64,000 bases of DNA, from NCBI GenBank assembly GCA_964618145.1, contig CAZTZR010000002.1, positions 384 through 64,383 on the forward strand. Direction: 5' to 3'. The position numbers and the translations under genes are program-made. The stretch comes from an uncultured Kofleriaceae bacterium. GTDB taxonomy: Bacteria; Myxococcota_A; Polyangia; HGW-17. This document shows positions 5,398 to 44,576 of the stretch, piece after piece; the first letter of the stretch is position 1; every line of letters begins with the position of its first letter. Under the pieces are notes generated by a model that ran no database searches, had not been told where the DNA came from, and saw only the letters and a list, made by a program, of their open reading frames with translations.

Positions 5398-6300
5398 TCA
5401 TCGATCCGGAACCGTTTCCAGACCGGTTACATCATTCAGAAGCCGGATGGCCAACTCGCCACCGGCCAGCACCAGTTCACCACGAGCCAAAAGGCGATTG
5501 TCATACAGCAGTTGGACCTGCTGGCCAAAAGCGCCGTGAAGGGGAATGACTGCCCCCTGGGTCAGGGCTGACAATTCACTTCCACGCAGCCGGATTCTTC
5601 CGATCTCCACGGAAATTTCAAGCGGAAACTGATCCGGCGGCGAAGGTTTCATGACCCATTCTCCATCGACAATCAGGCCCTCCGGGGAGGGCCTCACGGG
5701 CAACCACATATCATGTCGGCCAAGCCAAGCCAAATGTTTAGTTGTCCAACCCGGAAAAACCACTTCCCGGGCCCGGGCATTCCACACAGCCTCCACAGGC
5801 AAAAAACCGGCACAAAGGCTCAGATGGAACAAAAAGGAGGGGAACGTGGAAACCGGGAAAAAAGGTTCGTCTTCGTCCACGAGGCCCGGGGAACAATACA
5901 CCATGAAATGACCGCCGGGAACATGAACAAGTGCGGCCTTTGCCCGACCGGTGGACACCTCCGGAAAAGGACCACGGCGATTAACAGAAAATACCATGGG
6001 CCGATCCACCTCCATGCAACGAAAAAAACTGTCTGCAGGGTCCTGGGGAAACAACATCTGCAGCATGCGCAGGGAGGGTTGTGGCAGGCCAATGGAAACC
6101 TCCCCCGGAAAAATCCACCACGAAGCCGGTTCCGGACGGAACCCGGGAAGGTTCTGCCAGAAACAGGAGCCATGCACCTCTTGCCCGAATGCTGTCAGGG
6201 TCCCTTCCAGATAGCGGGACAACCGGCATTCCTGCAATTGTTGTTGCCAGTGCACCGGAGGGAGCCGACGAAGCAACGGATTAAGAACAGAACCATGCAT
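5398..6300 (-). CDS. SpoA-domain protein (FliN/FliY/SctQ family, C-terminal surface-presentation-of-antigens domain). N-terminal ~210 aa are unassigned.
   Basis: C-terminus PLEISVEIGRIRLRGSELSALTQGAVIPLHGAFGQQVQLLYDNRLLARGELVLAGGELAIRL matches the FliN/YscQ SpoA fold. Lies 31 bp upstream of PilZ on the same strand. Confidence 0.65.
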   Translation of the reverse strand: MHGSVLNPLLRRLPPVHWQQQLQECRLSRYLEGTLTAFGQEVHGSCFWQNLPGFRPEPASWWIFPGEVSIGLPQPSLRMLQMLFPQDPADSFFRCMEVDRPMVFSVNRRGPFPEVSTGRAKAALVHVPGGHFMVYCSPGLVDEDEPFFPVSTFPSFLFHLSLCAGFLPVEAVWNARAREVVFPGWTTKHLAWLGRHDMWLPVRPSPEGLIVDGEWVMKPSPPDQFPLEISVEIGRIRLRGSELSALTQGAVIPLHGAFGQQVQLLYDNRLLARGELVLAGGELAIRLLNDVTGLETVPDR

Positions 6301-6393: not shown

Positions 6394-8367
6394 TCAGGGG
6401 TTAACCGTGATCTGCAGGCGCCAGGAGTTGAGCGTTCCTGCATCAGCCTCATACTGGTCAATGACAATCAGGCGCCAGGAACCCTGGGTGGAGACGCCGT
6501 TGAGGGCAGTCACCTGGAAGGTGCGAATGAGGTTTTCCTCATAGTCCGAATCATCCGCAAACAGTACGACTTCCTGCCCGCCGGGGGCGCGCAGTTTGAC
6601 GATCAGGTCGGGACGGAACGGGTGGGTGATGTTCACATCCACCGAGAGAGCCGCCACGGTACCGGCTACCGGAACCTCAATGATGGAGGTCACTCCGTTT
6701 TCATCGCCATCGGGGATACCCACGGCATTGGTGTTCGTCATATCCACCGCCTGTACTTCCTGACAGGCCGCATCCTCCGCGCAGGCCGGATCCGCGCAGT
6801 CAATCATGCCATTTCCATCGTTGTCGATTCCATCGTCACAGATTTCCGCCGGCACTTCCCCGGTCAGGAAGAATTCCAGGGACCAGGAATTCAGGCGACC
6901 CGTATCGGAACCGGCCCGGTCGGAAACCCGCAGCGTCCAGTCTCCTGTGATGCTCTTCTGGTCGAAGTCCGTGAGGGTATACGTCTTGCGGATGTCATCC
7001 GTGGAGCCGCCTTCGCGGTTGTGCAGGGTCGCCACGGTTCCATCGGGACCTTCGAGGGCCACGATCAGATCCCCGATGTACGTATGGGAGATGTCCACCG
7101 TGACAAACAGTTTGCCGATGGTGCCGGGCTGAGTCACCTGAATCACCGAGGAAATGCCTGTGGTGGTGTTGTCGGGGATGTTCATCTGGGTGTTGTTCGA
7201 GAAAACCAGACCGGCAGGCCGGCAAGCCGGATGATCCGCACAGTCTTCGTCCGCGCAGTCAATCTTGCCGTCAAAATCATTGTCCACGCCGTCATCACAG
7301 ACTTCCCGCAGGTCGAGTTTGGGAACGCCAGAACCGTAAACCGTGGCGTATTCTTCCACATAGCGATAGGACAGCCAGCCATAACCGGCGCCGAACTTGT
7401 TGCGAATGCCGAATCCGGTGGTGCCCCAGGAATTCTTGAACAGGAAAAAGCCTTTTTCCATCATGGGATTGCCATTGGCGTCCTTGATGATCTTGCCTTC
7501 GCCGTCCCGCATGGGAACCTCAAGGTTGTCATCCCATCCCAGAAGCAGGATGGCATGACCGGCGCGCTTCTTCAGGCTTTCTTCCTTGTCCTTTTCGTTC
7601 GGATAGGTGACATACCCTTCGCTCCAGTAGTCGGAATTGATGGGCAACGTACCCGCCCGGTGATTCCAGGACTGGTAGAAAAAGGTCATACCGGCAACGA
7701 CTCCGGCCTGGTTTTCGGATATGAAGGCCTTGATGGAGCGGTTGCGGGAGTTGACGAAACGACCGGCAGGAAGCTTGAAGCGGTGGGAAGACATGGCGGA
7801 TTCCGGCGGATCACCATTGGTGAAACACACCACAGGACGGGTGTCTTCCTCGCCGGTACAGCGCGGATCATCGGAAGCACTCCAGGGGCGGCTCTGATAC
7901 GGCCAGGCGCTTTCCTGCACCACTCCATAGCGGGAGATGGCGGCCAGGTTGTCCCGGGCGGAGGAACCTTCCGTGTTGGTGAAGGCGCCAACTTCCACCT
8001 TTACAGACCACTGAAGGAACTGCTCGGAGAAGTCCGGGTTGGGAATGCTGCCTTCCTTGAGATACAGATGTTCCATCAGCGCTACGGCGGCAAAAATGGA
8101 GCATACACCCCGGCTGCCCTGGCTCTTGACCGGACTCTGGGTGTCAATCAGGTCGAATGTCGCAGGATAGGTCGCGTCAAATTTGCCGTCCTCAGGCAGT
8201 TCGGAATTGGAAGGAGCTCCCGCAAAGAGGGAAGCCTCATCGGAAAGTGGCGCTTCGCTGTCATGCGGATTCGCCGTGATGGGACCTTTTTTGGATTCCT
8301 CGCAACCCGTGCCCAGCACCAGCGCAAGCATAATGAACAAAGAAATCAACATCCTTGTCGTTTTCAC
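6394..8367 (-). CDS. Secreted lipoprotein: papain-like (C1) cysteine peptidase domain followed by two [Cys/Asp-rich module + proprotein-convertase P-domain] units
   Basis: Signal peptide with lipobox (LVLGTGC). C1 catalytic motifs QGSRGVCSIFAAVA (Cys), GHAILLLGWDD (His), NSWGTTGFG (Asn). Two P_proprotein-like domains (ISHTYIGDLIVALEGPDGT...GDWTLRVSDRAGSDTGRLNSWSLEF and ITHPFRPDLIVKLRAPGG...GSWRLIVIDQYEADAGTLNSWRLQI). Two CDDGxDNDxxGxIDCADxxC modules. Confidence 0.8.
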   Translation of the reverse strand: MKTTRMLISLFIMLALVLGTGCEESKKGPITANPHDSEAPLSDEASLFAGAPSNSELPEDGKFDATYPATFDLIDTQSPVKSQGSRGVCSIFAAVALMEHLYLKEGSIPNPDFSEQFLQWSVKVEVGAFTNTEGSSARDNLAAISRYGVVQESAWPYQSRPWSASDDPRCTGEEDTRPVVCFTNGDPPESAMSSHRFKLPAGRFVNSRNRSIKAFISENQAGVVAGMTFFYQSWNHRAGTLPINSDYWSEGYVTYPNEKDKEESLKKRAGHAILLLGWDDNLEVPMRDGEGKIIKDANGNPMMEKGFFLFKNSWGTTGFGIRNKFGAGYGWLSYRYVEEYATVYGSGVPKLDLREVCDDGVDNDFDGKIDCADEDCADHPACRPAGLVFSNNTQMNIPDNTTTGISSVIQVTQPGTIGKLFVTVDISHTYIGDLIVALEGPDGTVATLHNREGGSTDDIRKTYTLTDFDQKSITGDWTLRVSDRAGSDTGRLNSWSLEFFLTGEVPAEICDDGIDNDGNGMIDCADPACAEDAACQEVQAVDMTNTNAVGIPDGDENGVTSIIEVPVAGTVAALSVDVNITHPFRPDLIVKLRAPGGQEVVLFADDSDYEENLIRTFQVTALNGVSTQGSWRLIVIDQYEADAGTLNSWRLQITVNP

Positions 8368-8516: not shown

Positions 8517-9560
8517 TCATTCCGGCGAAGACTCTTCCTGACTTTCGTCCACCGGTTCCATCACTGGCATGACAATGATGCGCAGCGGATTTTCCCGATC
8601 ATCCAGATATATTGTCTGTACCTTCTCCAGGGGAAGATCCATTGTGGCCAGCAGTTGGTCCAGATACACCAGCCGGGCGGGCAAATCCGACGGTTCCAGA
8701 TGAATGGCACAGGGAGAATGTTTCAGGTACAACACCACCACATCATTGGCCAGATAGATTTCACTCAGTTCCGGACGGGCCGGATTTTCCTGATACAGTT
8801 TCAGGATTTCAAGACTCCGGCGGACGGCACGATGCACCATCCGGGGTTTGTTCCGGAACAACTCCCGGGACAATCCCGTGACGATCACTTTCTGGCGCAA
8901 TTCCTCGGGAGCCGCACGCTTGAAGATCTCGCCTTCCGGATTGATCAGGTAAAAGGGGGTACTTTCGATATCGCAGGGTTCGTTGTCGCAGGAGGAGTCG
9001 CCGGAAAACAGGATGGCCAACACGCTCTCATGCTCGGTGACTTCGATGTGCAGGGTGGAAGGGAGGCTTTTCCACACGGAAACTGCCTTCACCCAGGGAT
9101 GCATCAGTATGCGCTTTCTGACATCCCCCGGACGAATCCTGAAAAGGTTTTGGCCCCAGGACAATTGTGCCATGGATATGAGCGTTTCCCTGTCCGCATG
9201 GTACGTAGGGCTGATTTCAATGTGTTTCAGACCGAAATTCGGAGAATTGTACAGATACTGATAACCCTTCCATGCTCCCAGGGCCAAAATGCCCATGAAC
9301 AGCAGGCCCGTGACACCGAGATGAAATTGCCTGGACAGCAACAACCGGACCGGGGCACTTCGCCGCAACCTTTCAACCAGCCGGTCTTCGGGGCGGGAGT
9401 TTTCCCCTTTGGTGTCCCCTTTGGTTTCAGATTCCTTTTCCTGGGGATCTCCTTCGGGTTCCGAAGTGTCCGTTTCGGGATTTTTCAGGGGACGAATGGG
9501 TACAACGCCGGTGGTTTTCTTTACCGTTTTCCTCGTGCGTTGCTTCCCCGGTCCCTTCAT
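8517..9560 (-). CDS. ftsQ: Cell division protein FtsQ (POTRA domain), with a long basic/acidic N-terminal cytoplasmic extension
   Basis: Single TM helix (VTGLLFMGILALGAW) followed by a POTRA-like region. Immediately downstream of murC with a 4-bp overlap. Confidence 0.75.
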   Translation of the reverse strand: MKGPGKQRTRKTVKKTTGVVPIRPLKNPETDTSEPEGDPQEKESETKGDTKGENSRPEDRLVERLRRSAPVRLLLSRQFHLGVTGLLFMGILALGAWKGYQYLYNSPNFGLKHIEISPTYHADRETLISMAQLSWGQNLFRIRPGDVRKRILMHPWVKAVSVWKSLPSTLHIEVTEHESVLAILFSGDSSCDNEPCDIESTPFYLINPEGEIFKRAAPEELRQKVIVTGLSRELFRNKPRMVHRAVRRSLEILKLYQENPARPELSEIYLANDVVVLYLKHSPCAIHLEPSDLPARLVYLDQLLATMDLPLEKVQTIYLDDRENPLRIIVMPVMEPVDESQEESSPE

Positions 9561-10948
9561 GGTTCCTGCAAACGATCCAGAAGTTTTCCTGACAACTGCG
9601 TAATGGTACCGGCACCCAGCATCAGAACCAGATCACCGGGTTCCAGGCGGGACACAAGCGTTTCCAGTGTACTGTCCAGATCTCCGGTGGCCATGGCTGT
9701 CTTGTTGCTCAGACGACTGATGCCCTCGGCCAGGGACACCGAGTCAATGCCCGGAATCAACAGTTCACCGGCACCGTAGATATCCGTCACCAGAACTTCA
9801 TCGGCCGCAAAAAACGCCCGGCCGAACTCGGTAAATAGCGCCTGTACACGGGTATAACGATGGGGTTGCAAAACAGCCCAGAGCCGGCGGTGGGGATAGC
9901 CCTGCCGGGCAGCGGACAAGGTGGCCGCGATCTCCGTGGGATGATGGGCGTAATCATCCACCACCATCACCCCTCCTTTTTCACCACGTATGGAGAAACG
10001 TCTGTCCACGCCGGCGAAGTTTTCCAGGGAAGTGGCAATTTCCCCGAAGTCAATGCCCAGTTCCACCCCGAGAACCACGGTAGCCAGGGAATTCAGCACA
10101 TTGTGGCGTCCCAGCATTCGAAGACGGATTTCTCCGAGAAGTTTGCCGTGACGCAAAACGGAATAGCGGCTTCCATGACCTTCGGGCACCACATCCACCG
10201 CCTGATAATGGGCCTTTCTGGAAAACCCGTAGGTGATGTTGCGACGGTGGACCCGTTCCACCAGTTCCTGGCAGTTTTCGTTGTCAATGCAGACTATGTT
10301 GAATCCGTAAAACGGAATGCTGGAGCAGAACTGTGTGAAACTGTCCACAATCTGTTCCAGGGAACTGTAGTGATCCATGTGTTCTTCGTCGATGTTGGTG
10401 ACCACCGTGATCAACGGACGCAGGAACAAAAAGGAGCCGTCACTCTCGTCGGCTTCCACCACAATCAGTCCCCCGCTGCCGCGGTGGGCGTTGGTACCGA
10501 TGGCATTGAGTTTTCCTCCGATGACAACCGTCGGATCCTGATGGGTCAGGATGGTTGCACACAATGAGGTGGTGGTGGTCTTGCCATGGGTCCCGGCAAT
10601 GGCAATGCCATCTCCGAAACGCAAGAGTTCGGCGAGCATCTCCGCCCTTGGAATCACCGGAATGTCCAGATTGCGGGCCCGCATCAGTTCGGGATTTTCC
10701 GGACGGATGGCCGAAGAAAACACTACCACGGCAGCTCCCTCCACCGCATCGGGGTGATGCCCGATATTGATCTGCACACCGTGTTCCCGCAACCGCTGGG
10801 TGTTCTCGTTTTCCCGCAAATCGGATCCCGTGACCATGTATCCGAGTTCAATGAAAATCTCCGCGATGCCACTCATCCCGATGCCACCGATACCGACAAA
10901 ATGGATGCGCCGGACGCGTTCCTGAAACAAGATGCCTGGTTCTTTCAT
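9557..10948 (-). CDS. murC: UDP-N-acetylmuramate--L-alanine ligase
   Basis: GIGGIGMSGIA, TGTHGKTTTT and DESDGSF Mur ligase motifs; 463 aa. Confidence 0.92.
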   Translation of the reverse strand: MKEPGILFQERVRRIHFVGIGGIGMSGIAEIFIELGYMVTGSDLRENENTQRLREHGVQINIGHHPDAVEGAAVVVFSSAIRPENPELMRARNLDIPVIPRAEMLAELLRFGDGIAIAGTHGKTTTTSLCATILTHQDPTVVIGGKLNAIGTNAHRGSGGLIVVEADESDGSFLFLRPLITVVTNIDEEHMDHYSSLEQIVDSFTQFCSSIPFYGFNIVCIDNENCQELVERVHRRNITYGFSRKAHYQAVDVVPEGHGSRYSVLRHGKLLGEIRLRMLGRHNVLNSLATVVLGVELGIDFGEIATSLENFAGVDRRFSIRGEKGGVMVVDDYAHHPTEIAATLSAARQGYPHRRLWAVLQPHRYTRVQALFTEFGRAFFAADEVLVTDIYGAGELLIPGIDSVSLAEGISRLSNKTAMATGDLDSTLETLVSRLEPGDLVLMLGAGTITQLSGKLLDRLQEP

Positions 10949-11014: not shown

Positions 11015-13216
11015 TTACTTGGTGGGATCATCCCAGATGTTGCCCTGGAATCCGGGGGTGGTGGGGGTGGTGGTACCCGGACCCTTGTAGATCACCTTCG
11101 GGTCCTGCTGCGGACATTGCCAGGTGTACGGGGCGGGAAGCGTCTGGGCCACCCTCTCCTCTGGCTTCCAGTAGCGATACGTGATGTTGATCGAACAGAC
11201 CCGCTTTTCCTCTCCAGCCTTTTTCTCGGACTCGAAGAACTTCTGGAAATCGGAAGTCACCTTCAATTCATTGGTACCCAACTGCATAAGTACCCAGGAG
11301 GGTTTCAGCAATGCATTGAAAGGGCTTTCAGGTTTCATGGCCAGCACCACCAGGCCACTGGCGGTCTTCTGGAAGGCCCAGTTGAGCCCCGGGAAAAACC
11401 GGACCAGCGTCATGCCCTCGTATTCCTCGCGGGTGGATAGGGAGGTAATGATCTCCTCCACCGCACGCAGGGGAAAATCCATGCGGATGTAGACCTTGAA
11501 GTATTCATTCTGTGGAACCTTGTCCCGGGTTTCCACAAACTTCTCCCAATAGGATTCCCGGTGCTTCAGGTCCCGGCCGTAGGCAATCTTGAAGGAGGTG
11601 GAGATGTCCCGCTGGATGTCACGGATCTGGTTCATGATCTCCCGCTGGCGATCCCGGTTGCCGCCCATGGTCCGGTAGCGGCTGAGAAGATCTTCACGGG
11701 GCTGGTAATACAGGCCGCGAATGACGGTCTTCCATACGCCGTCCTTGTCGGCAATGCGGTTTCCGATGTGTTCCACCAACAAGTCCAGGGCCCACCCCTC
11801 GGCATCCGCGATACCACTCTTTTCATCGGGGGCATCCAGCACACTGGTATAGATGATCAGGTTGCCATCCTTCTCGAGAATGACGTGCTCGTCCTTGACC
11901 CATTCCGGGCGGGCGTCAGCGGAACTGCTGACCCTCTCCGTCACCAGTTCGGAACCTCCCGTCTGCTGGCTTCCGATCCGCTTGTACAGGAACCAGCCTC
12001 CGGCGGTAACGGCTATGATCAACAACAACACCGTAATGGCCAGACCGATGAAACTGCTCCCCACTGCCGCCGGTTCCGGGGCAACCGCAGTGGACGCAGC
12101 CTGGGCCTTCTTCAGTTCGTCCTTCACATTCTCTACGAACTTGATCCAGTTCTTTCCGAAATCCGGTTTGGGCAGCACGGCCAGTTTGGCCAGAAGGCTC
12201 TCCTGCACCTGGGCAAACGCCTTGCCCTTGCAGTCCGGGCAAGGCAACTCCGGTGCCGTGGCAAATTTGAGCACTTCAAAGTTTTCATCCACATTCACCC
12301 GCAGGTCCATGGTGGTGTTGCATGCAGTACAGGTGTACGGCAGGAAAAAATCCACAATGCGGGCCTTGCCGCCGGCCATGGCCTGGGGAATCAGCAACTT
12401 CTCCAGAAAGGTGTGGGGCACCCCCAACAGATAGATGGTCTGCACCAGGGGCTCCATGGTAGACATCATCTGCAACCATACGGAAGCACCCTCTTCGTGG
12501 ATCTCCCCGACACCATGCAGGTCCATGACCACCACACCCTCAACCCCCTCGGCGATCTTGCGACCCGGAAAGGAACCGTCCAGATCCCCGATGAACCGGA
12601 TATAGGTGGCATCCCCCACGTGCTTGTCGATCTTGAGTTTCTGTTTTTTCGAGGAAACCTTGTAGCGGAGTCGGTGCGCCAGAAAGGAAATCACCTCCGG
12701 ATCCGGCTCGGGTTTGTCCTGGCTGGCCAGATAGGAGAGGAAACTGTCGGGATCTTCGTCCAGATACTCCGCATTACCGCACTTCTCGCAGGGCTGGTCC
12801 GGAATCTTCTTGTCCTTGATGGTGTCAAAATGGTCCGCCACCTCCAGCAGAATGCTGTCGTCCCGCTCGCAATAGTCACAATGATAAGGAGCAAAGAAAC
12901 TCAGAATCCGGCCCTTTCCGCCGAAATTCGCGACCATGTTGAACTGGTCGATGAGTCGCGGCGGGCACTTGATGAAGTAGATGGCTTCACAGCGTTCGTT
13001 CGCCACCTTCAGGAATTCAAGCCACTCCCGGATACCGAAGGAACTGATGCGCCGGACACCGGAAAGGTCCACAATGAGCGTATCCTTGATGCCCTCGGCA
13101 ATCTGCTTGGAGTTGAAACTTTCGTCGATGGTACCGTTGAACTGCAACGCAGTGATTTTCTCTTCGACGATCTTGCGGACTTCCAGACGGGATTCTTCAG
13201 CCATATTGATCTCCAA
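11015..13216 (-). CDS. Membrane sensor protein: cytoplasmic tandem [STAS (anti-sigma-antagonist-like) + Cys4 zinc ribbon] x2, one TM helix, ~330-aa extracytoplasmic domain
   Basis: STAS-like segments (LIVDLSGVRRISSFGIREWLEFLK... and VVVMDLHGVGEIHEEGASVWLQMM...), each followed by CxxC...CxxC (HCDYCE...CEKCG and CTAC...CPDCK). TM helix SSFIGLAITVLLLIIAVTAGGWFLY. Long hydrophilic C-terminal domain. Confidence 0.6.
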   Translation of the reverse strand: MEINMAEESRLEVRKIVEEKITALQFNGTIDESFNSKQIAEGIKDTLIVDLSGVRRISSFGIREWLEFLKVANERCEAIYFIKCPPRLIDQFNMVANFGGKGRILSFFAPYHCDYCERDDSILLEVADHFDTIKDKKIPDQPCEKCGNAEYLDEDPDSFLSYLASQDKPEPDPEVISFLAHRLRYKVSSKKQKLKIDKHVGDATYIRFIGDLDGSFPGRKIAEGVEGVVVMDLHGVGEIHEEGASVWLQMMSTMEPLVQTIYLLGVPHTFLEKLLIPQAMAGGKARIVDFFLPYTCTACNTTMDLRVNVDENFEVLKFATAPELPCPDCKGKAFAQVQESLLAKLAVLPKPDFGKNWIKFVENVKDELKKAQAASTAVAPEPAAVGSSFIGLAITVLLLIIAVTAGGWFLYKRIGSQQTGGSELVTERVSSSADARPEWVKDEHVILEKDGNLIIYTSVLDAPDEKSGIADAEGWALDLLVEHIGNRIADKDGVWKTVIRGLYYQPREDLLSRYRTMGGNRDRQREIMNQIRDIQRDISTSFKIAYGRDLKHRESYWEKFVETRDKVPQNEYFKVYIRMDFPLRAVEEIITSLSTREEYEGMTLVRFFPGLNWAFQKTASGLVVLAMKPESPFNALLKPSWVLMQLGTNELKVTSDFQKFFESEKKAGEEKRVCSINITYRYWKPEERVAQTLPAPYTWQCPQQDPKVIYKGPGTTTPTTPGFQGNIWDDPTK

Positions 13217-13242
13217 TCAAGTATTGAAACAGGGCATGGGTC

Positions 13243-14196
13243 CTATTCATGAAAAACATGCACTGATCTGGGCAAAGTTGTAAATTCACGCCGGTTCAAA
13301 CCCAAATCATAAAGTACCGTAACTTCAGTGCTGATTCCAGGTTTTATCGTGAAAAAACTGGCATAGCCGTGTTGATAGATGTACATCATCCCCAACCCGG
13401 CCCCTCCTCCTTCGGTGTCGATCTGGCCGGCCTGGGACAAGGCCCGGTGCATACCCCCGAAGACATGCTTCCGTTTGAGTCCCCCGAAAGGATCACGTAC
13501 GGAAACTGCCAGGGTTTCCCCATCGGTTCCGATGCAGAAGGAAGCCGCCTGATGTTCTTCAAGTTGGACTTCCTGTTTGCGATCCTGGGCGTACAGGTGC
13601 TGTCCCTGTTCATCCACGGGCGCATCATACACGGCATTCATCAGCAACTCATGGGTCAGTTCAGCGAATGACTCCTGCACTTTCGGTGGCGTCCCCAGTT
13701 TCTCGCAGAAGGTGGGAACCCAGTCCACAATCAGGTGGAGATCCTCCGAGCTGAAAACAGGGGTTTCATGCAGGCGTGCTCCCCAGTGCAAAAACGGCTT
13801 TACACCCTCAATATCATAACTCTTGATGTGGCGACGCACCACATGAAGCACTTCCCAGAGCCTCAGCGGATTGGCGGCCCGGCGTCCGAAAATGTGATCC
13901 ACGCGGGCATCCGAAGCGGCCACTCCAAGGGCGCTGGCGGGATCCTCCTCCATGAGCACCAGAATGGCACACTCCGGAGGTGCCGCAACAAGAGCCAATT
14001 GTAAAAAACACTCGGATACCAGGAGAATCCTGGTATCCTCACCGAAATCTCCCGTGCTGGGAGCGCTCTCTTTTGTCAGACACTTCAGACCCGCAGCGAA
14101 GAACACTTTTTCCAGTCGACGCAGAGTGATGACATCCTTGTCGCAAGCCAGTATCATGGGCTTGTTTGTCGAATCGGTCATGAGTTTCCTGTCCAT
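13243..14196 (-). CDS. Receiver-like (probable pseudo-receiver) domain fused to a GHKL/HATPase_c anti-sigma-factor-type serine kinase domain (RsbW/SpoIIAB-like)
   Basis: N-terminal beta-alpha REC-like pattern with Glu at the usual phospho-Asp position (ILLVSE). C-terminal N-box ELLMNAVYDA and G2 box GGGAGLGMMY. 26 bp downstream of the STAS gene. Confidence 0.55.
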   Translation of the reverse strand: MDRKLMTDSTNKPMILACDKDVITLRRLEKVFFAAGLKCLTKESAPSTGDFGEDTRILLVSECFLQLALVAAPPECAILVLMEEDPASALGVAASDARVDHIFGRRAANPLRLWEVLHVVRRHIKSYDIEGVKPFLHWGARLHETPVFSSEDLHLIVDWVPTFCEKLGTPPKVQESFAELTHELLMNAVYDAPVDEQGQHLYAQDRKQEVQLEEHQAASFCIGTDGETLAVSVRDPFGGLKRKHVFGGMHRALSQAGQIDTEGGGAGLGMMYIYQHGYASFFTIKPGISTEVTVLYDLGLNRREFTTLPRSVHVFHE

Positions 14197-14322
14197 GAAT
14201 CGGGTTTCCGGGACACCTGAACCATCCCGGTCTCATGAAAAATCCAAAACAGTATAATGAAGTCTTCCAAAATCCTCAAGAATCATCTAGTATTCTTTGG
14301 CGGGACAACTCATATTTCCCTG

Positions 14323-15411
14323 ATGGAGTCATCCATGACAACACTTTTTCTTGCATTTTTCATCCTTTCCACACCGGACCCGATGGCTGCCAACCTGCTG
14401 TCGGAAGGCCAGAAGTTCTATAATGACGGTGATGTCGCCCGTGCAGCCACCCTGTATGATGCCTACCTCCAACTGGTTCCCCGGGACAGGGATATCCTTT
14501 TGCGGTTGGCGGAACTTTATCAGTCCAGCGGAAGAAACGATCAGGCCGTGCCCCATTACCAGAACCTCCTGAAACACTTCTGCGGCAAAACCTGCAAGGA
14601 AAACTGTTTCAGCGAGGCAGAATGCAGGCGAACCGGGGAAATCGTGAAACGCATTTCCTCCGTCGCCACCGATGATGACCAGGTGCCGCTTTCGGCCCGG
14701 GTCCCCGAAATGGCAGCGAAGGTGTTTTCCCAGGCCGTGGAACTGAAGAAAAAGCGCAATTTCGAGGAAGCCCGGAAGTTTCTTACCGTGGCGCTGAAAC
14801 TGGATCCCGATCTGGTGGGAGTCTACCGTCATCTCGGTGAAGTGTACGAACAACTCAAGGATCAGAAGCAGGCAGATGAATTCTATCTCTGGTACCTGAG
14901 GGTACGGCCTGCCGGCCCCCTGGCGGCGCAGGTCCGCGGAAAACTCAGTGAGGAAGCCACCAAAAACCTTGCACGCCTCACACTGAACGCCTCGTGGAAC
15001 TGCTTTATCGTCATCGGATCGGAATCCCTCACGGACACCCGCGGCAAGGCCATCCGCACCCCCGTAAAGGAACTGACCCTTCCGGCAGGCCGATACGGCA
15101 TCGGTTTCGTCTGTCCGGAACAGCATCTGGCACGCCGGTTCTGGGTGGATCTTGCCGCCCAGGAAAACCGGACCCTGGATTTTGAGTTCGGAGCCATCGT
15201 GGTGAACATGAATCCCTGGGCCCGCATTCTGGCGGCCCCTGTCGTCACCGAAGGAAAGCAGCAGTTCATGGATCTTGGCCTGTTTGACATCATCGGCCTG
15301 CCAGCGGGAAAATACACGGTCAAGCTGAACGCCTTTGACAAATCCCGCACCAAAACCATGAATCTGGAAATCAAGCCAAAGGAAATCGTCCGCATCACCC
15401 AGTGGGACTGA
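14323..15411 (+). CDS. Secreted TPR-repeat protein
   Basis: Signal peptide (MTTLFLAFFILSTPDPMAA) and TPR-like helical repeats (YNDGDVARAATLYDAYLQLVP..., ARKFLTVALKLDPDLVGVYRHLGEVYEQL). Start could be 14323 or 14335. Confidence 0.55.
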   Translation: MESSMTTLFLAFFILSTPDPMAANLLSEGQKFYNDGDVARAATLYDAYLQLVPRDRDILLRLAELYQSSGRNDQAVPHYQNLLKHFCGKTCKENCFSEAECRRTGEIVKRISSVATDDDQVPLSARVPEMAAKVFSQAVELKKKRNFEEARKFLTVALKLDPDLVGVYRHLGEVYEQLKDQKQADEFYLWYLRVRPAGPLAAQVRGKLSEEATKNLARLTLNASWNCFIVIGSESLTDTRGKAIRTPVKELTLPAGRYGIGFVCPEQHLARRFWVDLAAQENRTLDFEFGAIVVNMNPWARILAAPVVTEGKQQFMDLGLFDIIGLPAGKYTVKLNAFDKSRTKTMNLEIKPKEIVRITQWD

Positions 15412-16815
15412 TCAAAAGGCCGCGACCTTCATCGTCACATAATACAGAACCGTATCCGTCCCATACAAACCCCGGCACACACCAATGGCGGCATGGGTGC
15501 CCTTGGCATGCTGCATGTTCAGCCGGTGTCCTTCGCTCTTGATCCAGGCGGCCACCACTTCTTCGGGCGAAGGTCCCATGGCTACATTCTCCGCCACCAG
15601 TTGGGGTTTGAGTCCTGCCTTGATCACCCGGTTCAGGGGGGAACCGGTACTCCCGGAGATATGGAATATCTTGCGGTGTTGGCACATTTCTTCGCTGTGG
15701 CTGCGGGAGAGGGCCGCCAGTTTCGCATGGTGCAAAAACGGCTTCATGTTGAGTCGTTTGCGGTATTCGTTGACCCTGTCCATAACATCCTTTTCGAAAA
15801 CATCAATACTTATCTCCCTGGTTGGTTCCTGCATGCGTGCCGCAGTCTTCTTCTCTGCATAGGATTCTCCGCAACCCACCGGAAACAGGGCTGCCACAAA
15901 CGGCCCCTGGGCATCCTTTCCCAGAAGTTCCACATTGTAAAAACCCCGTTTGTCCTGGTCATTGCAGAAATCCAGCCGGACCGTAAACGAACCGTCCGCA
16001 GCGAGTTTCACCGGCATTCTGGCAATTCCCTCGTCCGGGGAAGTCACCAGGACCTCCAGTCCAAAGGTACCTCTCTCCATGGTACCCTTTACGGTCAGAA
16101 AATCCCCGGGTTCCACCCAACGGGGAAACGGGGCATGGGACAACCGGCGTTTCTGCATCAACAGGACCAGAACATCTGAACCGTCATCCTTTTTGCCCCT
16201 TGCAAAACCAAAATGGGTGATTCCATGCTGGCTACGGTATTGATGGAGGTTTTTGGCCACCCATTGGGCCATGAAGGCATCATCATACCCGGAAGCCACC
16301 AGATAATTCTGCAGGATCCACGGACTGGAGATCCCCCAGCGGGAAGCTATTTCCATCAACGAACTCGGTTGCAGCGGCTTGCCCTGGAACACCAGCAAGT
16401 GTCCTGCAAGTCCACTGAGTGCCTGACTGTGTACTGTCGGGAGTTTGCCGGACTCAAACCGTTCCCGGATTTTATTATACATGGAAATAGAGTTTGCCGG
16501 CACTTCTTCGGAATCCGCATACTGGCGAATCACTACGGGCGGTACAGGAACCGTCACGGATTTCTCCCCAGGTTCGTCAACGGGAGTGCCTCCCTTGACC
16601 TCCGGATGCACGATCTCCCGGTTTTGTGCCCTCCCCTCCACCATGGTGGCCCCGTGGACCGTTTCCGGCCGGCTGGATGTTCCCTGTTGGGTGCAATGAG
16701 CCAACAACAGACATCCGAAATACAGGAGTCCAAAAGAAATGCGGTACCCCTGTATCGTGGAGTGCACGCCATTGCCCAATGGGCACGCAACAAATGAAAT
16801 ACCCGGATTCATCAT
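15412..16815 (-). CDS. Lipoprotein with C-terminal CAP (SCP/PR-1/YkwD-like) domain
   Basis: Lipobox LLLAHC after a signal peptide starting MMNPGISF. C-terminal CAP signature region (VNEYRKRLNMKPF...HSEEMCQHRKIFHIS...GENVAMG...WIKSEGHRLNM). The track start at 17238 is an unlikely 141-codon upstream extension. Confidence 0.65.
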   Translation of the reverse strand: MMNPGISFVACPLGNGVHSTIQGYRISFGLLYFGCLLLAHCTQQGTSSRPETVHGATMVEGRAQNREIVHPEVKGGTPVDEPGEKSVTVPVPPVVIRQYADSEEVPANSISMYNKIRERFESGKLPTVHSQALSGLAGHLLVFQGKPLQPSSLMEIASRWGISSPWILQNYLVASGYDDAFMAQWVAKNLHQYRSQHGITHFGFARGKKDDGSDVLVLLMQKRRLSHAPFPRWVEPGDFLTVKGTMERGTFGLEVLVTSPDEGIARMPVKLAADGSFTVRLDFCNDQDKRGFYNVELLGKDAQGPFVAALFPVGCGESYAEKKTAARMQEPTREISIDVFEKDVMDRVNEYRKRLNMKPFLHHAKLAALSRSHSEEMCQHRKIFHISGSTGSPLNRVIKAGLKPQLVAENVAMGPSPEEVVAAWIKSEGHRLNMQHAKGTHAAIGVCRGLYGTDTVLYYVTMKVAAF

Positions 16816-17041
16816 GGAATTGCCTCTTGCCTGACCAGTTGCCAGGAAAGGAATCACCCGGAAAACCCGGAATGTTCCCCATACCAATTCATACAGGTTT
16901 TTTGATGTTTTGGGAGTGTTTTTTTCTTGTGGAGGTTCCGGGATTCTTTCCCTTTGATTTCCTGTTCGATTTCTGTTAGCCTTATCGCCCTGTGACTGGA
17001 TATGACTGAAGGTCATCAACACATCCATTGAGGAGTACACC

Positions 17042-17956
17042 ATGAAAAAATCCACCATTCTTCTTCTTTCCTTCGCTCTTCTGTTTGCGGTTGCCGCATG
17101 CAAGAAGAAAGGCTCCAAGTCCTCCGGAAAAGCTGCCGAAGCCACCAAGGCCGCTGCTGGAGAAAGTGCCGCCACCGCTGAAAAGGAACTGGGTCTCAAA
17201 CCCGGACTCATGCTTTCCCTGAATATCAAGTCCCTCAAGAAAACCCCGTTCTATGATGACATCCTCAAGGGCGTCAAATCGGATGAAACCACCGGAAAAT
17301 GCATGGAAAAAGCCCTTGAGTCCGCCGACTCCCTGTTGCTCATGATGGATGTTGCCGCCATGGTGGCTGACGAGAACAGTGAGCCCAACATGTATGTGGC
17401 GATTTTCGGCATTGATTCCAAGGAAACCATCGACTGCATCAAGAAGATGGAAGACAGTGATCTCAAGGAAGGCAAACTCAACGGAGCCGATGCCTTTGTT
17501 TCCGAAAAGGACGGAAAGAAATACATCTGGGCACCCAACGACAAGACCATCGTTGCCGTGGGCGGCAAATATTCCGAAAAAATCACTCCCGGAAAAGACG
17601 CCCTCGGAAAGGGTGAACTGAAGCCCTTCGGCGGTGACAAATCCATCGCCTTCAGCGTGGGTGAAGTAAAGAATCCCATGGTCAGTCTGAAGGAAGCTTC
17701 CGGCATGGTTGATTTCGCCAGCGGTCTTGCGGTCGACATTTCAGCCACCCTTTCGAGTGAAAAGGAAGCGGAAGAACTTGAAAAGCAGTATGAGCAAGGC
17801 AAAGCCATGGCGGAACCCCTGGGCATGGGAGATCTGGTGAAAAACCTGAAGTTCTCCCGCAAGGGCGCCACCCTGGGCATCAACCTGAAACTTTCTGACA
17901 GCGAGTTCAAGGGTCTGATCGAAAAAGCCAAGGGCATGGGCGGACTTTCCATGTAA
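17042..17956 (+). CDS. Lys/Glu-rich lipoprotein of unknown function
   Basis: Signal peptide plus lipobox (LLFAVAAC). Strong C/G third-position codon bias (AAG, GCC, TCC) suggests high expression. Confidence 0.6.
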   Translation: MKKSTILLLSFALLFAVAACKKKGSKSSGKAAEATKAAAGESAATAEKELGLKPGLMLSLNIKSLKKTPFYDDILKGVKSDETTGKCMEKALESADSLLLMMDVAAMVADENSEPNMYVAIFGIDSKETIDCIKKMEDSDLKEGKLNGADAFVSEKDGKKYIWAPNDKTIVAVGGKYSEKITPGKDALGKGELKPFGGDKSIAFSVGEVKNPMVSLKEASGMVDFASGLAVDISATLSSEKEAEELEKQYEQGKAMAEPLGMGDLVKNLKFSRKGATLGINLKLSDSEFKGLIEKAKGMGGLSM

Positions 17957-23609: not shown

Positions 23610-24245
23610 TCAGCGGGCGCGGGTCAGGCGCCGGGCCAGCAGGTTGTCCAGTTTGGTTGAGAACAGTTCCACGTCGTCGATGATCTTCTTGGTGAAGGAG
23701 GTCAGCAGAAGATGTGCGGTCAGACAGGGAACCGCAACGATCAGACCGAACGCGGTGGTGTTCATGGCGATGGCGATACCGCTGGAGAGAACCGCGGAGC
23801 GGTTTTCGGGGGTCGCCTGACCAAGAGCGTCGAACGCCGCGATCATACCAAGAATCGTTCCGAGCAGACCGCAAAGGGTGGCGATGTTGGCCACGCCCTG
23901 CAGGGCCGGGGTACGACGGGTCACTTCCGGAGCGATTTCCAGTTTGGCTTCCTCAATGGCTGCAGACACGGCAGCGGCGCCATCGCCGTACTTGGTCAGT
24001 CCGGCCTTGATCACCCGGGGAAGCGCTGCGGTGGGGGCAGCATTGCAGAGCTTGATGGCAGAGTCGATGTTGTTGGCTCCCACCAACTGCATGATCTGGC
24101 TCATGAAAGCTTCCGCATTGATGTTGTAGCGGAAAAGAAGGAAAATGGACCGTTCAATGATGATTGCGATACCGAATGCAGAAGCAAACAGAATCACGTA
24201 CATGAATTCGCCACCATCAACAAATGCCTTTGCGAGACCACTCAT
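23610..24245 (-). CDS. TolQ/ExbB/MotA/AglR-like proton channel subunit
   Basis: Three TM helices, conserved C-terminal helices (GIAIAMNTTAFGLIVAVP). Confidence 0.8.
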   Translation of the reverse strand: MSGLAKAFVDGGEFMYVILFASAFGIAIIIERSIFLLFRYNINAEAFMSQIMQLVGANNIDSAIKLCNAAPTAALPRVIKAGLTKYGDGAAAVSAAIEEAKLEIAPEVTRRTPALQGVANIATLCGLLGTILGMIAAFDALGQATPENRSAVLSSGIAIAMNTTAFGLIVAVPCLTAHLLLTSFTKKIIDDVELFSTKLDNLLARRLTRAR

Positions 24246-24424
24246 TTGTACTTCCTCCGAATGGGCAAGATGCCCGGTTAAAGTGAGTTAAACCTATAAA
24301 AACTGTTTGAGAAAATCAATTGTTATTCTCTCTTCAAAAGTCGAATTCGCCCGGGCATTTCCGCAGGCGCTGGCATTTATAACGTATTTTCCCGCCCATG
24401 GGAAAGAAAATTGTACGCATTCCA

Positions 24425-24673
24425 TCAGAAAGGTCCTTTTCCAAGCGATTCATGGATTTTCCTCAGGAAATTCTGGAAAAACCGGGGATCTTTTTCATCC
24501 CATCGCCAGAAACCCCCGTATTCCCATGCCTTGAAAATCTCGAAACGGGGACGGGGGATCTGTACCTCAAGGACGTCTGAATCATTTTTCGCTCCCTGGG
24601 CAGCGGCAGGGGAGATCTTTCCAGCGGAATAAAACAAACAACTCATGAACAGCAAAAAGTGAATGATTTTCAT
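24425..24673 (-). CDS. Small secreted protein (signal peptide, ~60-aa mature region, Trp-rich)
   Basis: ORF start overlaps the stop of the upstream TPR lipoprotein gene, so it sits inside the operon. Signal peptide MKIIHFLLFMSCLFYSAG. Confidence 0.4.
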   Translation of the reverse strand: MKIIHFLLFMSCLFYSAGKISPAAAQGAKNDSDVLEVQIPRPRFEIFKAWEYGGFWRWDEKDPRFFQNFLRKIHESLGKGPF

Positions 24674-25809
24674 TATTTGGATCCTTTTCCAAGACTGTCG
24701 ATCCGCTGCTTCGCCTGTTCCATCCAGGATTCCACCCGGATCTGCAACGCTCGATCGGGGGACTTCTGTTTTTTCAGGGAATCCCTTACTGCCCTGGCAT
24801 GAAACATGGCCTTTTCCATTCTGGCCTTTTCAGCAAGATTGCCTATCTGTGGATACTCTTCCATACTGATGTACAAAAGAGCCAGATTGTAATGGCACTT
24901 TTCGCAGTTTTTATTGAGATTCAACGCATACTCCAACTTGGTCAGGGCCTGGGACGCCTTTTTTTGCATCATATAGCCGGCACCAAGATTCAGGGGCAGA
25001 CGCCACTCCCGGCTCAGTGCGCCCTTTGCTGCAAGTTTCTCGGCATTCTCCAGGACGGTGACGGCCTGGTTCACTTCCTGCCTTTCCAGCAGCAACACCC
25101 CCAGCAGGAACTGGGCTTCCCCGTGACCAGCCAGCGATGAATGCGACAAATACTTTTCCGCCTGGGACTTCAGGCCGATGGCACCAATGTTCATGCCTTT
25201 GCTTTCAGCGTTTTTCGCCTGGAAAACAAAATATTTCCCCATCATGAAATGCCATCCCGCCCCCGGTTCCGTGGGGGGATTCTGCTTCTTGTGCATCCCC
25301 TCGACGTATTCGAGTACGGAACGCAGTTTTTCCATGTTTTCCTGCTGATAGTGGATGGTGGCCATCACCATGAGGGCATCCACATTGGAGAAGTCCAGTT
25401 TGAGAACATCTGTAATCAGCCGGAAAGCCTCGGCGTAGGCGGCTTCGGTTTTCTTCTCGGCATGTTTGGCCGCCTGGTTCACGAGGACCTTGATACGTTC
25501 CGGTTCGGACAAATCCCCGGTCTCGGCGGTACCCGATTCGGTGCCCTCGCCCCCCGCAACAACCCCCTCGCCACCTTCACCGGAGGAACCTTCATCCCCG
25601 GTTTCCGTGGAAGTGGTTGTGGCGGGCTTTTTCGGGTCGGAAGAGTCCGTTTTTCCGGTTTTCGTTTCGGTAAACGGGTCCTTGTCCGCAGTGGTCTTTC
25701 CCTTTTTCTTGGTGCATCCTGCCCCCGCCATCGCGAAAACAAGCACCATGCAGAGCTGTGCCAGAATGAACTGGCGATACGGTTCCAGCGCGGAGATCCT
25801 TCTCATCAC
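24673..25809 (-). CDS. TPR-repeat lipoprotein with low-complexity Thr/Gly/Glu-rich linker
   Basis: Lipobox MAGAGC; TPR-like helices (AEKYLSHSSLAGHGEAQFLLGVLLLERQE..., NCEKCHYNLALLYISMEEY). Confidence 0.6.
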   Translation of the reverse strand: MMRRISALEPYRQFILAQLCMVLVFAMAGAGCTKKKGKTTADKDPFTETKTGKTDSSDPKKPATTTSTETGDEGSSGEGGEGVVAGGEGTESGTAETGDLSEPERIKVLVNQAAKHAEKKTEAAYAEAFRLITDVLKLDFSNVDALMVMATIHYQQENMEKLRSVLEYVEGMHKKQNPPTEPGAGWHFMMGKYFVFQAKNAESKGMNIGAIGLKSQAEKYLSHSSLAGHGEAQFLLGVLLLERQEVNQAVTVLENAEKLAAKGALSREWRLPLNLGAGYMMQKKASQALTKLEYALNLNKNCEKCHYNLALLYISMEEYPQIGNLAEKARMEKAMFHARAVRDSLKKQKSPDRALQIRVESWMEQAKQRIDSLGKGSK

Positions 25810-25820
25810 GTATTCTCCTC

Positions 25821-33502: not shown

Positions 33503-33549
33503 GGTTCCAATCCTTACGCTGGAAAAATGTACCGGTTGGCGGAAGTGAC

Positions 33550-34311
33550 TCACTTGGAGCCCTTGGATTCTCCGTCACCGTCCTGGACAACCAGAGCACC
33601 GGACTTCAGTTGGAATTCAATGTGCGGCCGTTGATCCAGCGGAGTGGTCCATCCACCCTTTTCAACACCCCTTACTTCAAGGATGTATTGCTTGCCGGGC
33701 TCCACATTGAATGAGTACGTATTATGAACATCCCATTTCCATTCCCTTACATACCGGAACATCCCATAGCCATTGCCCTGGTAGGTGATGAATACCCGGA
33801 ACCGTACATTTCCGGGAGAAACATGCCCCACCGGAATGGAAATCTCCTTTTTGGCCAGCGTTTCCCGGTCCTTTTCACCGGCATCACTGTAGGATGCAAT
33901 CAGTTTCCCGTCCATCATGTAGCGCAGGCGAATCATCCTGAAAGCCCCACCCATGCGGTTGAGATGGCGAATCTCGATGCGGGCTCCTCCCAGGACTGCA
34001 CCCCGCTCCACGGTCATGGCTTCCTTGAGGAGCTGCAGGCGAAACTTGGTGGCAGTAACCTTGTTTTTCAGATCTTCCACAAGTTCGGCCAACTGGCGCA
34101 ACTTCAATTCGTTGCTGGATACCTCCGCGGCCTGGATGCGATCCGGGGCGGGACTGGTATCCCGGTCTTTTTCCGTTCCCACCGTCAGGGGTACTCCCGT
34201 GACGGCCGGAGGCGTTTTCACCTCGGGAGAGGTGGGGGGTTCCTGTGCATATGTACGGCTGCCCAGCGCCAATACGAGCATCATAACTGGAAATAGGATT
34301 CGCGTTTTCAT
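33550..34311 (-). CDS. Secreted protein of unknown function (N-terminal coiled coil, beta-rich C-terminal half). First gene of the 8-gene operon.
   Basis: Signal peptide MKTRILFPVMMLVLALGSRTYAQ; RBS GAGAGG 5 nt upstream of the ATG at 34311. Confidence 0.5.
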   Translation of the reverse strand: MKTRILFPVMMLVLALGSRTYAQEPPTSPEVKTPPAVTGVPLTVGTEKDRDTSPAPDRIQAAEVSSNELKLRQLAELVEDLKNKVTATKFRLQLLKEAMTVERGAVLGGARIEIRHLNRMGGAFRMIRLRYMMDGKLIASYSDAGEKDRETLAKKEISIPVGHVSPGNVRFRVFITYQGNGYGMFRYVREWKWDVHNTYSFNVEPGKQYILEVRGVEKGGWTTPLDQRPHIEFQLKSGALVVQDGDGESKGSK

Positions 34312-39437: not shown

Positions 39438-39538
39438 CGGGAAAAGGTCACTTAGGATGCCCATTAGTCAGTCGGAGACTTATGAATTCACTGCTGATTT
39501 AACCACAATTTGTGGATTTGCCCGTAACGGAGGAATCG

Positions 39539-44500: not shown

Positions 44501-44576
44501 TTGAAAATACTGCCTGCATGTGGTTAACTCCGGGTGCCATACAAGGCCGGCATGGCGCCGCAGCTAGGATCCCCGA

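Follow-up and report, generated by a model that had tools for sequence, protein, structure and literature searches.

The stretch of DNA considered here (the window, 64,000 nt; all positions below are numbered on the whole of it) comes from an uncultured Kofleriaceae bacterium. Two neighbouring genes on its minus strand are our subject: one, 13243..14196 (-), is an open reading frame (ORF) of 317 aa and is the candidate kinase gene; the other, 11015..13216 (-), is a 733-aa ORF starting from TTG and encodes a membrane protein with STAS domains. Both ORFs had been picked out in an earlier note made from the letters alone, and both are present on the minus strand as it described. That note placed the 317-aa gene downstream of the 733-aa gene, which is wrong, as the kinase gene is the upstream (5') one, with a gap of 38 nt between the two. 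The true starts are most likely ATG 14181 and ATG 13204, because identical database proteins and public gene calls have 312 aa (kinase) and 729 aa (membrane protein); a GGAG sits 7 nt 5' of ATG 13204. The pair is real and belongs to a widely conserved, uncharacterised family, for which partner switching with a membrane-spanning antagonist is a plausible mechanism.

Direct domain scans gave little. Pfam returned STAS below threshold only for the membrane protein (E 0.01-0.02), and the 317-aa protein had no match in Pfam or NCBIfam, even at Pfam E<=1. As these scans fell short, the domain calls were made from family alignments, profiles and structure models. The membrane-protein alignment contains 42 sequences, about 30-32% identical overall, and the family comprises at least 187 clusters at 90% identity. 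Across the 42 members Pfam recognizes STAS in 21, STAS_2 in 14 and PDZ_2 in nine.

In the AlphaFold (AF2) model of the membrane protein (predicted local distance difference test, pLDDT, 88.1), residues 12-94 (12935..13183, -) form a STAS domain, STAS1, for which Foldseek finds SpoIIAA (1thn_B), RsbV (6m36_B, TMt 0.70) and 4hyl. The last of these, a Haliangium antagonist, is also matched by a profile of STAS1 with the ribbon that follows it (E 0.0023). This ribbon, a beta-hairpin in the model, occupies residues 106-152 (12761..12901, -) and has the four cysteines of a zinc ribbon, C113, C116, C143 and C146. The whole arrangement then occurs a second time in the model, with STAS2 at residues 195-283 (12368..12634, -) and a second Cys4 zinc ribbon at residues 289-335 (12212..12352, -; C296, C299, C326, C329). 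All eight ribbon cysteines are invariant in the 42 sequences. An hhalign comparison of module 1 with module 2 gives a probability of 99.9% and E 1.6e-36; the STAS-ribbon unit has been duplicated in tandem. The earlier note had proposed a pair of STAS domains with a Cys4 ribbon after each, and the model, the Foldseek matches to SpoIIAA and RsbV, and the STAS matches in half of the relatives agree with it.

The predicted phospho-acceptor is Ser59 of STAS1 (codon 13040..13042, -). It lies inside the invariant motif R-I-S-S-F-G-I-R-E-W (13022..13051) and is itself the same in 42/42 sequences; the stretch 'SSFGIREW' is the most conserved one of the family. When the module profile is compared with PDB sequences, Ser59 falls in one column with the Ser of 'DSAG' (TM1442) and of 'MSSAG' (4hyl), a position which we take to be the phosphorylated site in SpoIIAA and RsbV-type proteins. 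STAS2 has 'HEEG' at the phospho-position and most relatives have 'DPAG' there; across the family this position is Ala, Glu or Asp, without Ser. A check for a phosphorylatable Ser or Thr in the STAS domains, which the earlier note had called for, is therefore positive for the first copy and negative for the second.

Could such STAS domains serve a transport system instead, as accessory or ligand-binding parts of the MlaB or SLC26 kind, with no phospho-switch at all? Weak profile and fold matches to the STAS domains of MlaB and prestin speak for it. The protein, however, has one membrane helix only, its gene always has a GHKL kinase gene beside it and the phospho-position holds an invariant Ser. 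The conserved cluster contains no ABC or SulP transporter gene, and for this reason a MlaB/SLC26-type role was rejected. We disfavour this explanation and give it hardly any chance.

The C-terminal part of the protein begins with a single transmembrane (TM) helix, residues ~391-417 (11966..12046, -), which AF2 models as one long helix. No other 19-mer is strongly hydrophobic (family mean Kyte-Doolittle value 2.5 here, 1.16 for the next best), and the count of one helix given previously therefore holds. We infer that the N-terminus is inside and the C-terminus outside from the Cys4 ribbons and the absence of a signal peptide on the N side, and from an HtrA-like PDZ domain and a Cys pair, conserved in the C-terminal domain within the clade of the window, on the C side. 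What follows the helix had been described as an extracytoplasmic domain of about 330 aa. The C-terminal part does exist, at about 315 aa, but it is not a single plain domain and ends in a PDZ domain of HtrA/DegP type. It starts with an alpha/beta domain with three long helices (residues 425-594; 11435..11944, -), modelled at pLDDT above 85, in which W439 and A472 are invariant; Foldseek found no convincing PDB match for it.

The PDZ domain itself covers residues 597-698 (11123..11428, -) and is divergent in the window clade. The family profile matches a DegP-like PDZ with E 2.7e-11, and Foldseek finds the PDZ of HtrA2 (2pzd_A, E 1.3e-3, TMt 0.66). A C-terminal tail, residues 699-733 (11018..11122, -), is disordered (pLDDT below 50) and ends in N-I-W-D-D-P-T-K. 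The motif N-I-W-D...D-P-T is conserved in the family, N726 and W728 being nearly invariant, and the receptor's own NIWD tail is a possible competing ligand of the PDZ domain. Throughout the membrane-protein alignment, conservation of the cytoplasmic half is far above that of the periplasmic half.

The upstream gene encodes a protein of two domains, for which we aligned 45 family members (about 30% identical overall). The family consists of at least 126 clusters, all of them unnamed and all from Myxococcota sources. The AF2 model has a pLDDT of 93.6 and a predicted TM-score (pTM) of 0.91. Its C-terminal domain, residues 141-316 (13249..13776, -), is a GHKL (Bergerat) domain like that of SpoIIAB and RsbW, with the N-box HELLMNAVYDA, the G1 box RDPFGGL and the G2 box GGGAGLG. 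Invariant in 45/45 kinases are E183, M186, N187, A188, D191 and A192 of the N-box, D235 and G238 of G1, and G264, G265, A266, G267 and G269 of G2. For this domain Foldseek returns SpoIIAB (1tid/1th8, E ~1e-5, TMt 0.74-0.77), RsbW (6m36, TMt up to 0.89), and also SiaB and UsfX. The Foldseek matches, the quality of the model and the invariant boxes together bear out the RsbW/SpoIIAB-type HATPase_c domain that had been read from the letters. A Pfam check for HATPase_c, negative for the window protein, is positive at the family level: HATPase_c is found in 9/45 members and HATPase_c_2 in 1/45.

The N-terminal domain of the kinase, residues 14-125 (13822..14157, -), has the (beta-alpha)5 topology of a receiver in the model and Foldseek matches to receivers, and the family profile matches the receiver 3hv2 with E 0.004. 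The fold is thus that of a receiver, as the earlier note had it; the replacement of the acceptor Asp by Glu, which it also claimed, is not what the alignment gives. In the window protein Ser61 stands at the acceptor position, where 32/45 homologs have Asp; Glu62 comes one residue later. The Thr column holds Met82 (Thr in 26/45 of the family) and the Lys column Arg105 (Arg in 27/45, with Lys not among the six commonest residues). At the site of the acidic pair the window protein has D19-K20-D21, the family consensus being E-R-N. The window protein therefore has the receiver fold and lacks the acceptor Asp, the acidic pair, the Thr/Ser and the Lys. The label 'pseudo-receiver' is right, because the acceptor, Thr and Lys columns hold Ser61, Met82 and Arg105. 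The likeliest role of this domain is in dimerisation or in binding a partner. Over its whole chain, the kinase is matched best in the PDB by LvrC of Leptospira (PDB 9qih, Foldseek E 1.7e-8).

How general is the pairing? A pattern scan of GTDB species genomes yielded 158 loci with the membrane protein, of which 80 were kept. Nearly all of the kept loci are labelled Myxococcota or Deltaproteobacteria (Polyangia, Haliangiales, and metagenome-assembled genomes (MAGs) of Kofleriaceae); one MAG is labelled Acidobacteriota and one just 'bacterium'. In the set of 83 related loci compared by tblastn, the kinase gene lies directly 5' of the STAS gene in about 80, and the exceptions are mostly loci that start at the STAS gene. 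The earlier note had called the two products an antagonist and kinase of a partner switch. Cognate pairing is upheld by this adjacency, by Ser59 and by the ATP-binding boxes; the signal may run in either direction.

Other genes accompany the pair. Divergent from it in the window, at 14257..15411 (+), is a gene whose product has TPR repeats (Pfam), a signal-peptide-like N-terminus and the C-terminus ...ITQWD. A homolog occupies the matching relative position in 72/83 loci, the C-terminus of this TPR family is W, WK or WD in 51/53 members, and distant homologs have a C-terminal PEGA domain. In most of the loci, the more distant ones, the genes downstream encode another TPR-PEGA protein, a FadL/PorV-like protein, an OmpA-family protein and a TonB-dependent receptor; in the two loci L001 and L003 these products, and the divergent TPR-PEGA protein, carry signal-peptide-like N-termini. 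The OmpA-family protein of L003 (14992..16845) has a C-terminal part resembling TraB of Myxococcus outer-membrane exchange, at 180 bits against a cut-off of 700. A Glt, Nfs or Tra identity for the extended cluster of the distant relatives was considered and dropped, since the matches were below cut-off only (TraB as given, and generic TPR matches to GltE and Tgl).

The window clade keeps only a core of three genes (kinase, STAS, TPR). There, murC and ftsQ (Pfam; 8517..10948, -) lie 66 nt 3' of the STAS gene on the same strand, and a terminator scan of the intergenic sequence shows no terminator-like site between them. This linkage is specific to the clade, as only the six loci with 76-78% identity have murC-ftsQ 3' of the STAS gene. 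The division and cell-wall genes of the window are split: ftsA and ftsZ (38166..40795, +) lie ~27 kb away from murC-ftsQ on the opposite strand.

The STAS-ribbon module is not confined to proteins of this type. Its profile (STAS1-ribbon1), searched against 1.84 billion cluster representatives, matches 3907 proteins at E<=1e-3, 2471 at E<=1e-10 and 313 at E<=1e-30. Among the best 150 representatives, 89 have the architecture of the window protein, 28 have N-terminal extensions and seven are long with the module first; 104 of these 150 carry the motif [ST]-S-[FY]-G-[IV]-R-[EK]-W. Cys4 ribbons after STAS domains had been called non-canonical. They are no peculiarity of the window protein; STAS with a Cys4 ribbon is a large module family of Myxococcota. 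Eight long representatives were scanned with Pfam, and FIST/FIST_C was found in four, a Hanks-type Ser/Thr kinase domain (Pkinase) in four and PDZ in two. In P0285, P0290, P0298 and P0354 Pkinase domains are joined to the module, at one end of it or the other. In another locus (L087) a FIST giant adjoins a Pkinase-module-PDZ protein. One representative, P0305, has 1675 aa, as does a window ORF (25821..30848), which was for that reason suspected of carrying the module; hmmsearch finds no STAS-ribbon module in it, so the equal length is a coincidence.

Two clusters of such paralogs are of particular help. In Sorangium (L084, 9001..19026) a kinase paralog, P0058, comes first, then a SpoIIE-type PP2C phosphatase, then two tandem-module proteins with 'ITSFGVREW'. 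The same order is seen in GCA_000601485.1 (L089, 3711..12843), which we take to be a Chondromyces genome; its kinase paralog has 339 aa and matches the profile of the kinase family with E 9e-128. In both, the order is pseudo-receiver-GHKL kinase, SpoIIE PP2C, FIST-fused tandem STAS-ribbon-TM-PDZ protein, second tandem-module protein. These are complete sets of kinase, phosphatase and STAS protein in cultivable myxobacteria. Their occurrence together is the strongest comparative argument for reversible Ser phosphorylation in the family pair.

The Hanks-type kinases deserve a separate thought, as 60 of the 64 loci whose flank is long enough have a Pkinase gene two genes upstream. The tandem STAS-ribbon part could chiefly be a docking or regulatory module for eukaryotic-like Ser/Thr kinases, with the GHKL protein as an accessory ATP-dependent binder or pseudokinase and Ser59 either as a determinant of binding or as the residue that the Hanks kinase targets. 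The four Pkinase fusions named above would fit, as would the STAS-ELK fusions noted amid the large STAS/RsbW/SpoIIE expansions of Sorangium (PMC2887360). Nevertheless, the window and its clade (L004-L015) have no neighbouring Pkinase, although both the GHKL-STAS pair and the invariant Ser are retained there. Invariant catalytic boxes would be unexpected in a GHKL pseudokinase, and the paralogous clusters have a PP2C of the SpoIIE kind that partner switches typically use. We regard this explanation as quite improbable.

If there is a switch, what is at its end, and what resets it? The earlier note had suggested, for the output, a FliA-like sigma factor encoded at 43179. The gene in question (43179..43859, +) encodes a group-3-like sigma of 226 aa that is subthreshold against FliA/WhiG and against SigB/F/G models; it lies 30 kb from the pair and no link was found. 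The genes annotated in L001 and L003 include none for a sigma factor, and no such gene lies near the pair in the window. Following this sigma gene (window 43179..45896, +) are a 220-aa ORF without matches and then a gene for a protein with TPR repeats and two cyclic-nucleotide-binding domains. A PP2C partner had also been suggested as a check. Pfam finds no SpoIIE/PP2C among the ~50 window ORFs, and phmmer with a single Sorangium PP2C as the query, a search of limited sensitivity, finds none in all ORFs of the window and the 83 loci; it is in the paralogous clusters L084 and L089 that a PP2C appears.

A classical sigma switch, with the kinase as anti-sigma factor of a group-3 sigma such as that at 43179..43859 and the membrane STAS protein as its antagonist, would account for the likeness of the kinase fold to the anti-sigma factors SpoIIAB, RsbW, UsfX and LvrC, and the window does encode a group-3-like sigma. 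The distance of 30 kb, the lack of a sigma gene in the annotated lists of L001 and L003 and the scores of the 43179 sigma, far under the cut-offs of every named family, all speak against it; no tested feature ties this sigma to the pair. We consider such a switch improbable.

Our preferred suggestion is that the two products are kinase and cognate substrate in a partner switch, and that the periplasmic part modulates phosphorylation of STAS1; we put its probability at roughly 0.55. The 312-aa GHKL serine kinase, like SpoIIAB or RsbW, would bind STAS1 of the 729-aa bitopic inner-membrane protein and phosphorylate Ser59. The duplicated STAS and Cys4 ribbon would be the cytoplasmic transmitter, with copy 1 as its only phosphorylatable copy. 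The helical alpha/beta domain and the HtrA-like PDZ would project into the periplasm and read the state of the envelope, likeliest through binding of a C-terminal peptide by the PDZ domain, for which the divergent TPR protein with its Trp end is the first candidate ligand. Such reading would alter the accessibility of STAS1. The kinase might then be held at the membrane on unphosphorylated STAS1, or it might phosphorylate STAS1 and leave for another partner; the reset would come from a PP2C whose gene lies elsewhere. The adjacency in about 80 of 83 loci, the alignment of Ser59, the intact ATP boxes and the PP2C in the paralogous clusters support a phosphorylation switch. An envelope context is suggested by the HtrA-like PDZ, the Cys pair of the clade, the signal-peptide-like neighbours in L001 and L003, murC-ftsQ in the window clade and the Trp-ended TPR protein.

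Several observations weigh against this suggestion. Neither window protein passes the Pfam thresholds for STAS, HATPase_c or Response_reg. The G1 box of the kinase reads 'DPFGG' where DxGxG is usual. The charges that flank the TM helix leave the topology undecided, with 0.95 K+R on the N side against 2.6 on the C side and acidic residues enriched on the C side as well. In the window clade the PDZ sequence is degenerate, including the region of the carboxylate-binding loop and peptide groove, and about ten of the TPR C-termini, that of the window protein included, have an extra residue past the Trp (WK or WD), which weakens a strict reading of them as C-terminal PDZ ligands. Absence of a phosphatase and a sigma factor from the annotated gene lists leaves the reset and the output without a gene. 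Finally, FIST or Hanks-kinase domains precede the module in paralogs, which fits a cytoplasmic input equally well.

This last point leads to a model that departs from the preferred one in direction only. Given the FIST and Hanks-kinase fusions, the signal could enter on the cytoplasmic side and be delivered by the periplasmic part. The kinase-STAS pair would be real and the membrane protein would be what is regulated: phosphorylation of STAS1 would alter binding or scaffolding by the periplasmic PDZ and helical domains, and no sigma factor would be involved. Tentative candidates for the periplasmic partners are the TPR-PEGA and outer-membrane proteins or, in the window clade, factors of the cell wall and division. 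The annotated lists of L001, L003 and the window without a sigma gene are in keeping with this, as are the signal-peptide-like N-termini of the downstream products and the divergent TPR-PEGA protein in L001 and L003, and the paralogs with FIST and Pkinase domains on the N-terminal side of the module. There is a precedent for a partner-switching-like module that directly regulates an enzyme (bioRxiv 10.64898/2026.04.08.717354), and STAS proteins acting on targets other than sigma factors, All4160 of Anabaena and SypA of Vibrio fischeri, are parallels. On the other hand, a cytoplasmic half that is far better conserved than the periplasmic one is a pattern more typical of receptors with fast-evolving sensors. 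A protein of the window type has no cytoplasmic sensor domain, and with the receiver of the kinase dead no cytoplasmic input is visible. We see the reversed direction as possible but doubtful. The alternatives considered here overlap in part.

Partner switching is a textbook logic of bacterial signalling, with known inputs through phosphatases (RsbU, SpoIIE, RsbU of Chlamydia) or stressosomes. To our knowledge, the antagonists of partner switches are small soluble proteins. The pair has in common with SpoIIAA/SpoIIAB and RsbV/RsbW of Bacillus a STAS domain with Ser at the N-terminus of alpha-2, a GHKL kinase with N, G1 and G2 boxes, adjacent genes and, in the paralogous clusters, a SpoIIE-type PP2C. 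It differs in its antagonist, which at 729 aa is bitopic and combines a pair of STAS-Cys4 ribbon modules with a periplasmic PDZ; a multidomain membrane protein of this size does not share the small, soluble, single-domain character of SpoIIAA and RsbV. The kinase here also has a degenerate N-terminal receiver, and no sigma factor or phosphatase was found in the locus.

Parts of the arrangement are already known from elsewhere. LvrC of Leptospira is a recently described anti-sigma factor in which a receiver is fused to an RsbW-like Bergerat-fold domain, as in our kinase; its receiver is canonical (D53, Y-T switch) and phosphorylated by the histidine kinase LvrB, and sequestration of a sigma factor has been proposed (PMC13269768), whereas the window kinase has Ser at the acceptor, Met and Arg at the T and K positions, and a co-encoded STAS partner. 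Periplasmic input into partner switching through a membrane-spanning component is known from the Rsb system of Chlamydia, where it goes through the membrane sensor phosphatase RsbU (PMC11619594). There the role of receptor falls to the phosphatase, with RsbV1 and RsbV2 as soluble STAS proteins, while here it is the STAS protein that spans the membrane. A STAS domain phosphorylated by an RsbW-like kinase, with an output other than a sigma factor, is found in All4160/HenR/Alr3423 of Anabaena, where the STAS is embedded in a larger protein (bioRxiv 10.64898/2026.04.08.717354), and in SypA/SypE of Vibrio fischeri, where the kinase is embedded in the multidomain SypE with a receiver (PMC10120452). 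These systems have no membrane span, periplasmic domain, Cys4 ribbons or tandem STAS. Large expansions of STAS, RsbW and SpoIIE genes in Sorangium are likewise known already.

Outside partner switching, DegS-RseA-sigmaE and other sensors with a PDZ of HtrA type resemble the membrane protein in having a periplasmic HtrA-like PDZ on a signalling protein anchored in the inner membrane, possibly with a C-terminal aromatic ligand; the window protein has no protease domain, no regulated proteolysis is evident and the transmitter is based on STAS. Closest are the FIST- or Hanks-fused tandem STAS-ribbon paralogs of Sorangium, GCA_000601485.1 and Myxococcota metagenomes, which share the module with [ST]-S-F-G-[IV]-R-E-W, often the TM helix and PDZ, and an adjoining kinase of the same family. 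In contrast to the window type they add FIST/FIST_C or Pkinase at the N-terminus, and the cluster of the FIST type includes a PP2C.

We found no bitopic antagonist with tandem STAS domains, Cys4 ribbons and a periplasmic PDZ in the searchable literature or in named database entries. Searches for a membrane-anchored or PDZ-linked STAS antagonist gave only SLC26 papers and general reviews, and homologs carry no label other than 'hypothetical', 'STAS domain-containing' or 'anti-anti-sigma regulatory factor'. The statement of the earlier note that the arrangement had not been described agrees with this, as the searchable literature offered no bitopic STAS antagonist with a periplasmic domain.

Some further genes of the window may be mentioned in passing. 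On the minus strand at 15412..17238 is a 608-aa ORF from TTG whose sole domain is a C-terminal CAP/SCP domain (residues 487-600); its long N-terminal part may reflect an over-called start. A 300-aa protein (5398..6300, -) has a C-terminal FliN/SctQ domain (FliMN_C), its best NCBIfam match being SctQ of the SpaO/YscQ type, under the cut-off. Next to it, 6394..8367 (-) encodes a predicted secreted papain-family (C1) peptidase of 657 aa with two proprotein-convertase P-domains, each preceded by a Cys-rich stretch 'CDDG(V/I)DND'. A run of genes at 23610..33553 (-), which may form a trans-envelope machine, encodes a channel of the MotA/ExbB family (211 aa), a TPR protein (378 aa), the 1675-aa protein, which is without a Pfam match, and another TPR protein (902 aa).

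A broader suggestion can be made, although we regard it as speculative and on balance unlikely. Proteins of the window type might be minimal members of a large, undescribed signalling family, to date seen only in Myxococcota, in which the duplicated STAS-ribbon takes the place, in a transmembrane receptor, of a transmitter of the histidine-kinase, chemoreceptor or anti-sigma kind. The PDZ would read the Trp tail of the TPR(-PEGA) protein or the exposed C-termini of envelope proteins, phosphorylation of Ser59 by the pseudo-receiver-GHKL kinase would be the readout, and the output would act on murC-ftsQ in the window clade or on the outer-membrane cluster elsewhere.

Whatever its exact function, the pair has an antagonist that is itself, by its predicted topology, a transmembrane protein with a periplasmic PDZ; it is conserved together with its kinase in over 150 species-level genomes, all within a single phylum, and may report the state of the envelope. 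The STAS and zinc-ribbon module it carries has been reused with FIST and Hanks-kinase domains across hundreds of protein clusters. If the phosphorylation model is true, these proteins would be a new class of receptors for signalling from the envelope to the cytoplasm or in reverse, and a function would be at hand for part of the STAS/RsbW expansions of Sorangium. In the lineage of the window it would also provide a testable link between the state of the envelope and the genes of the cell wall and division.

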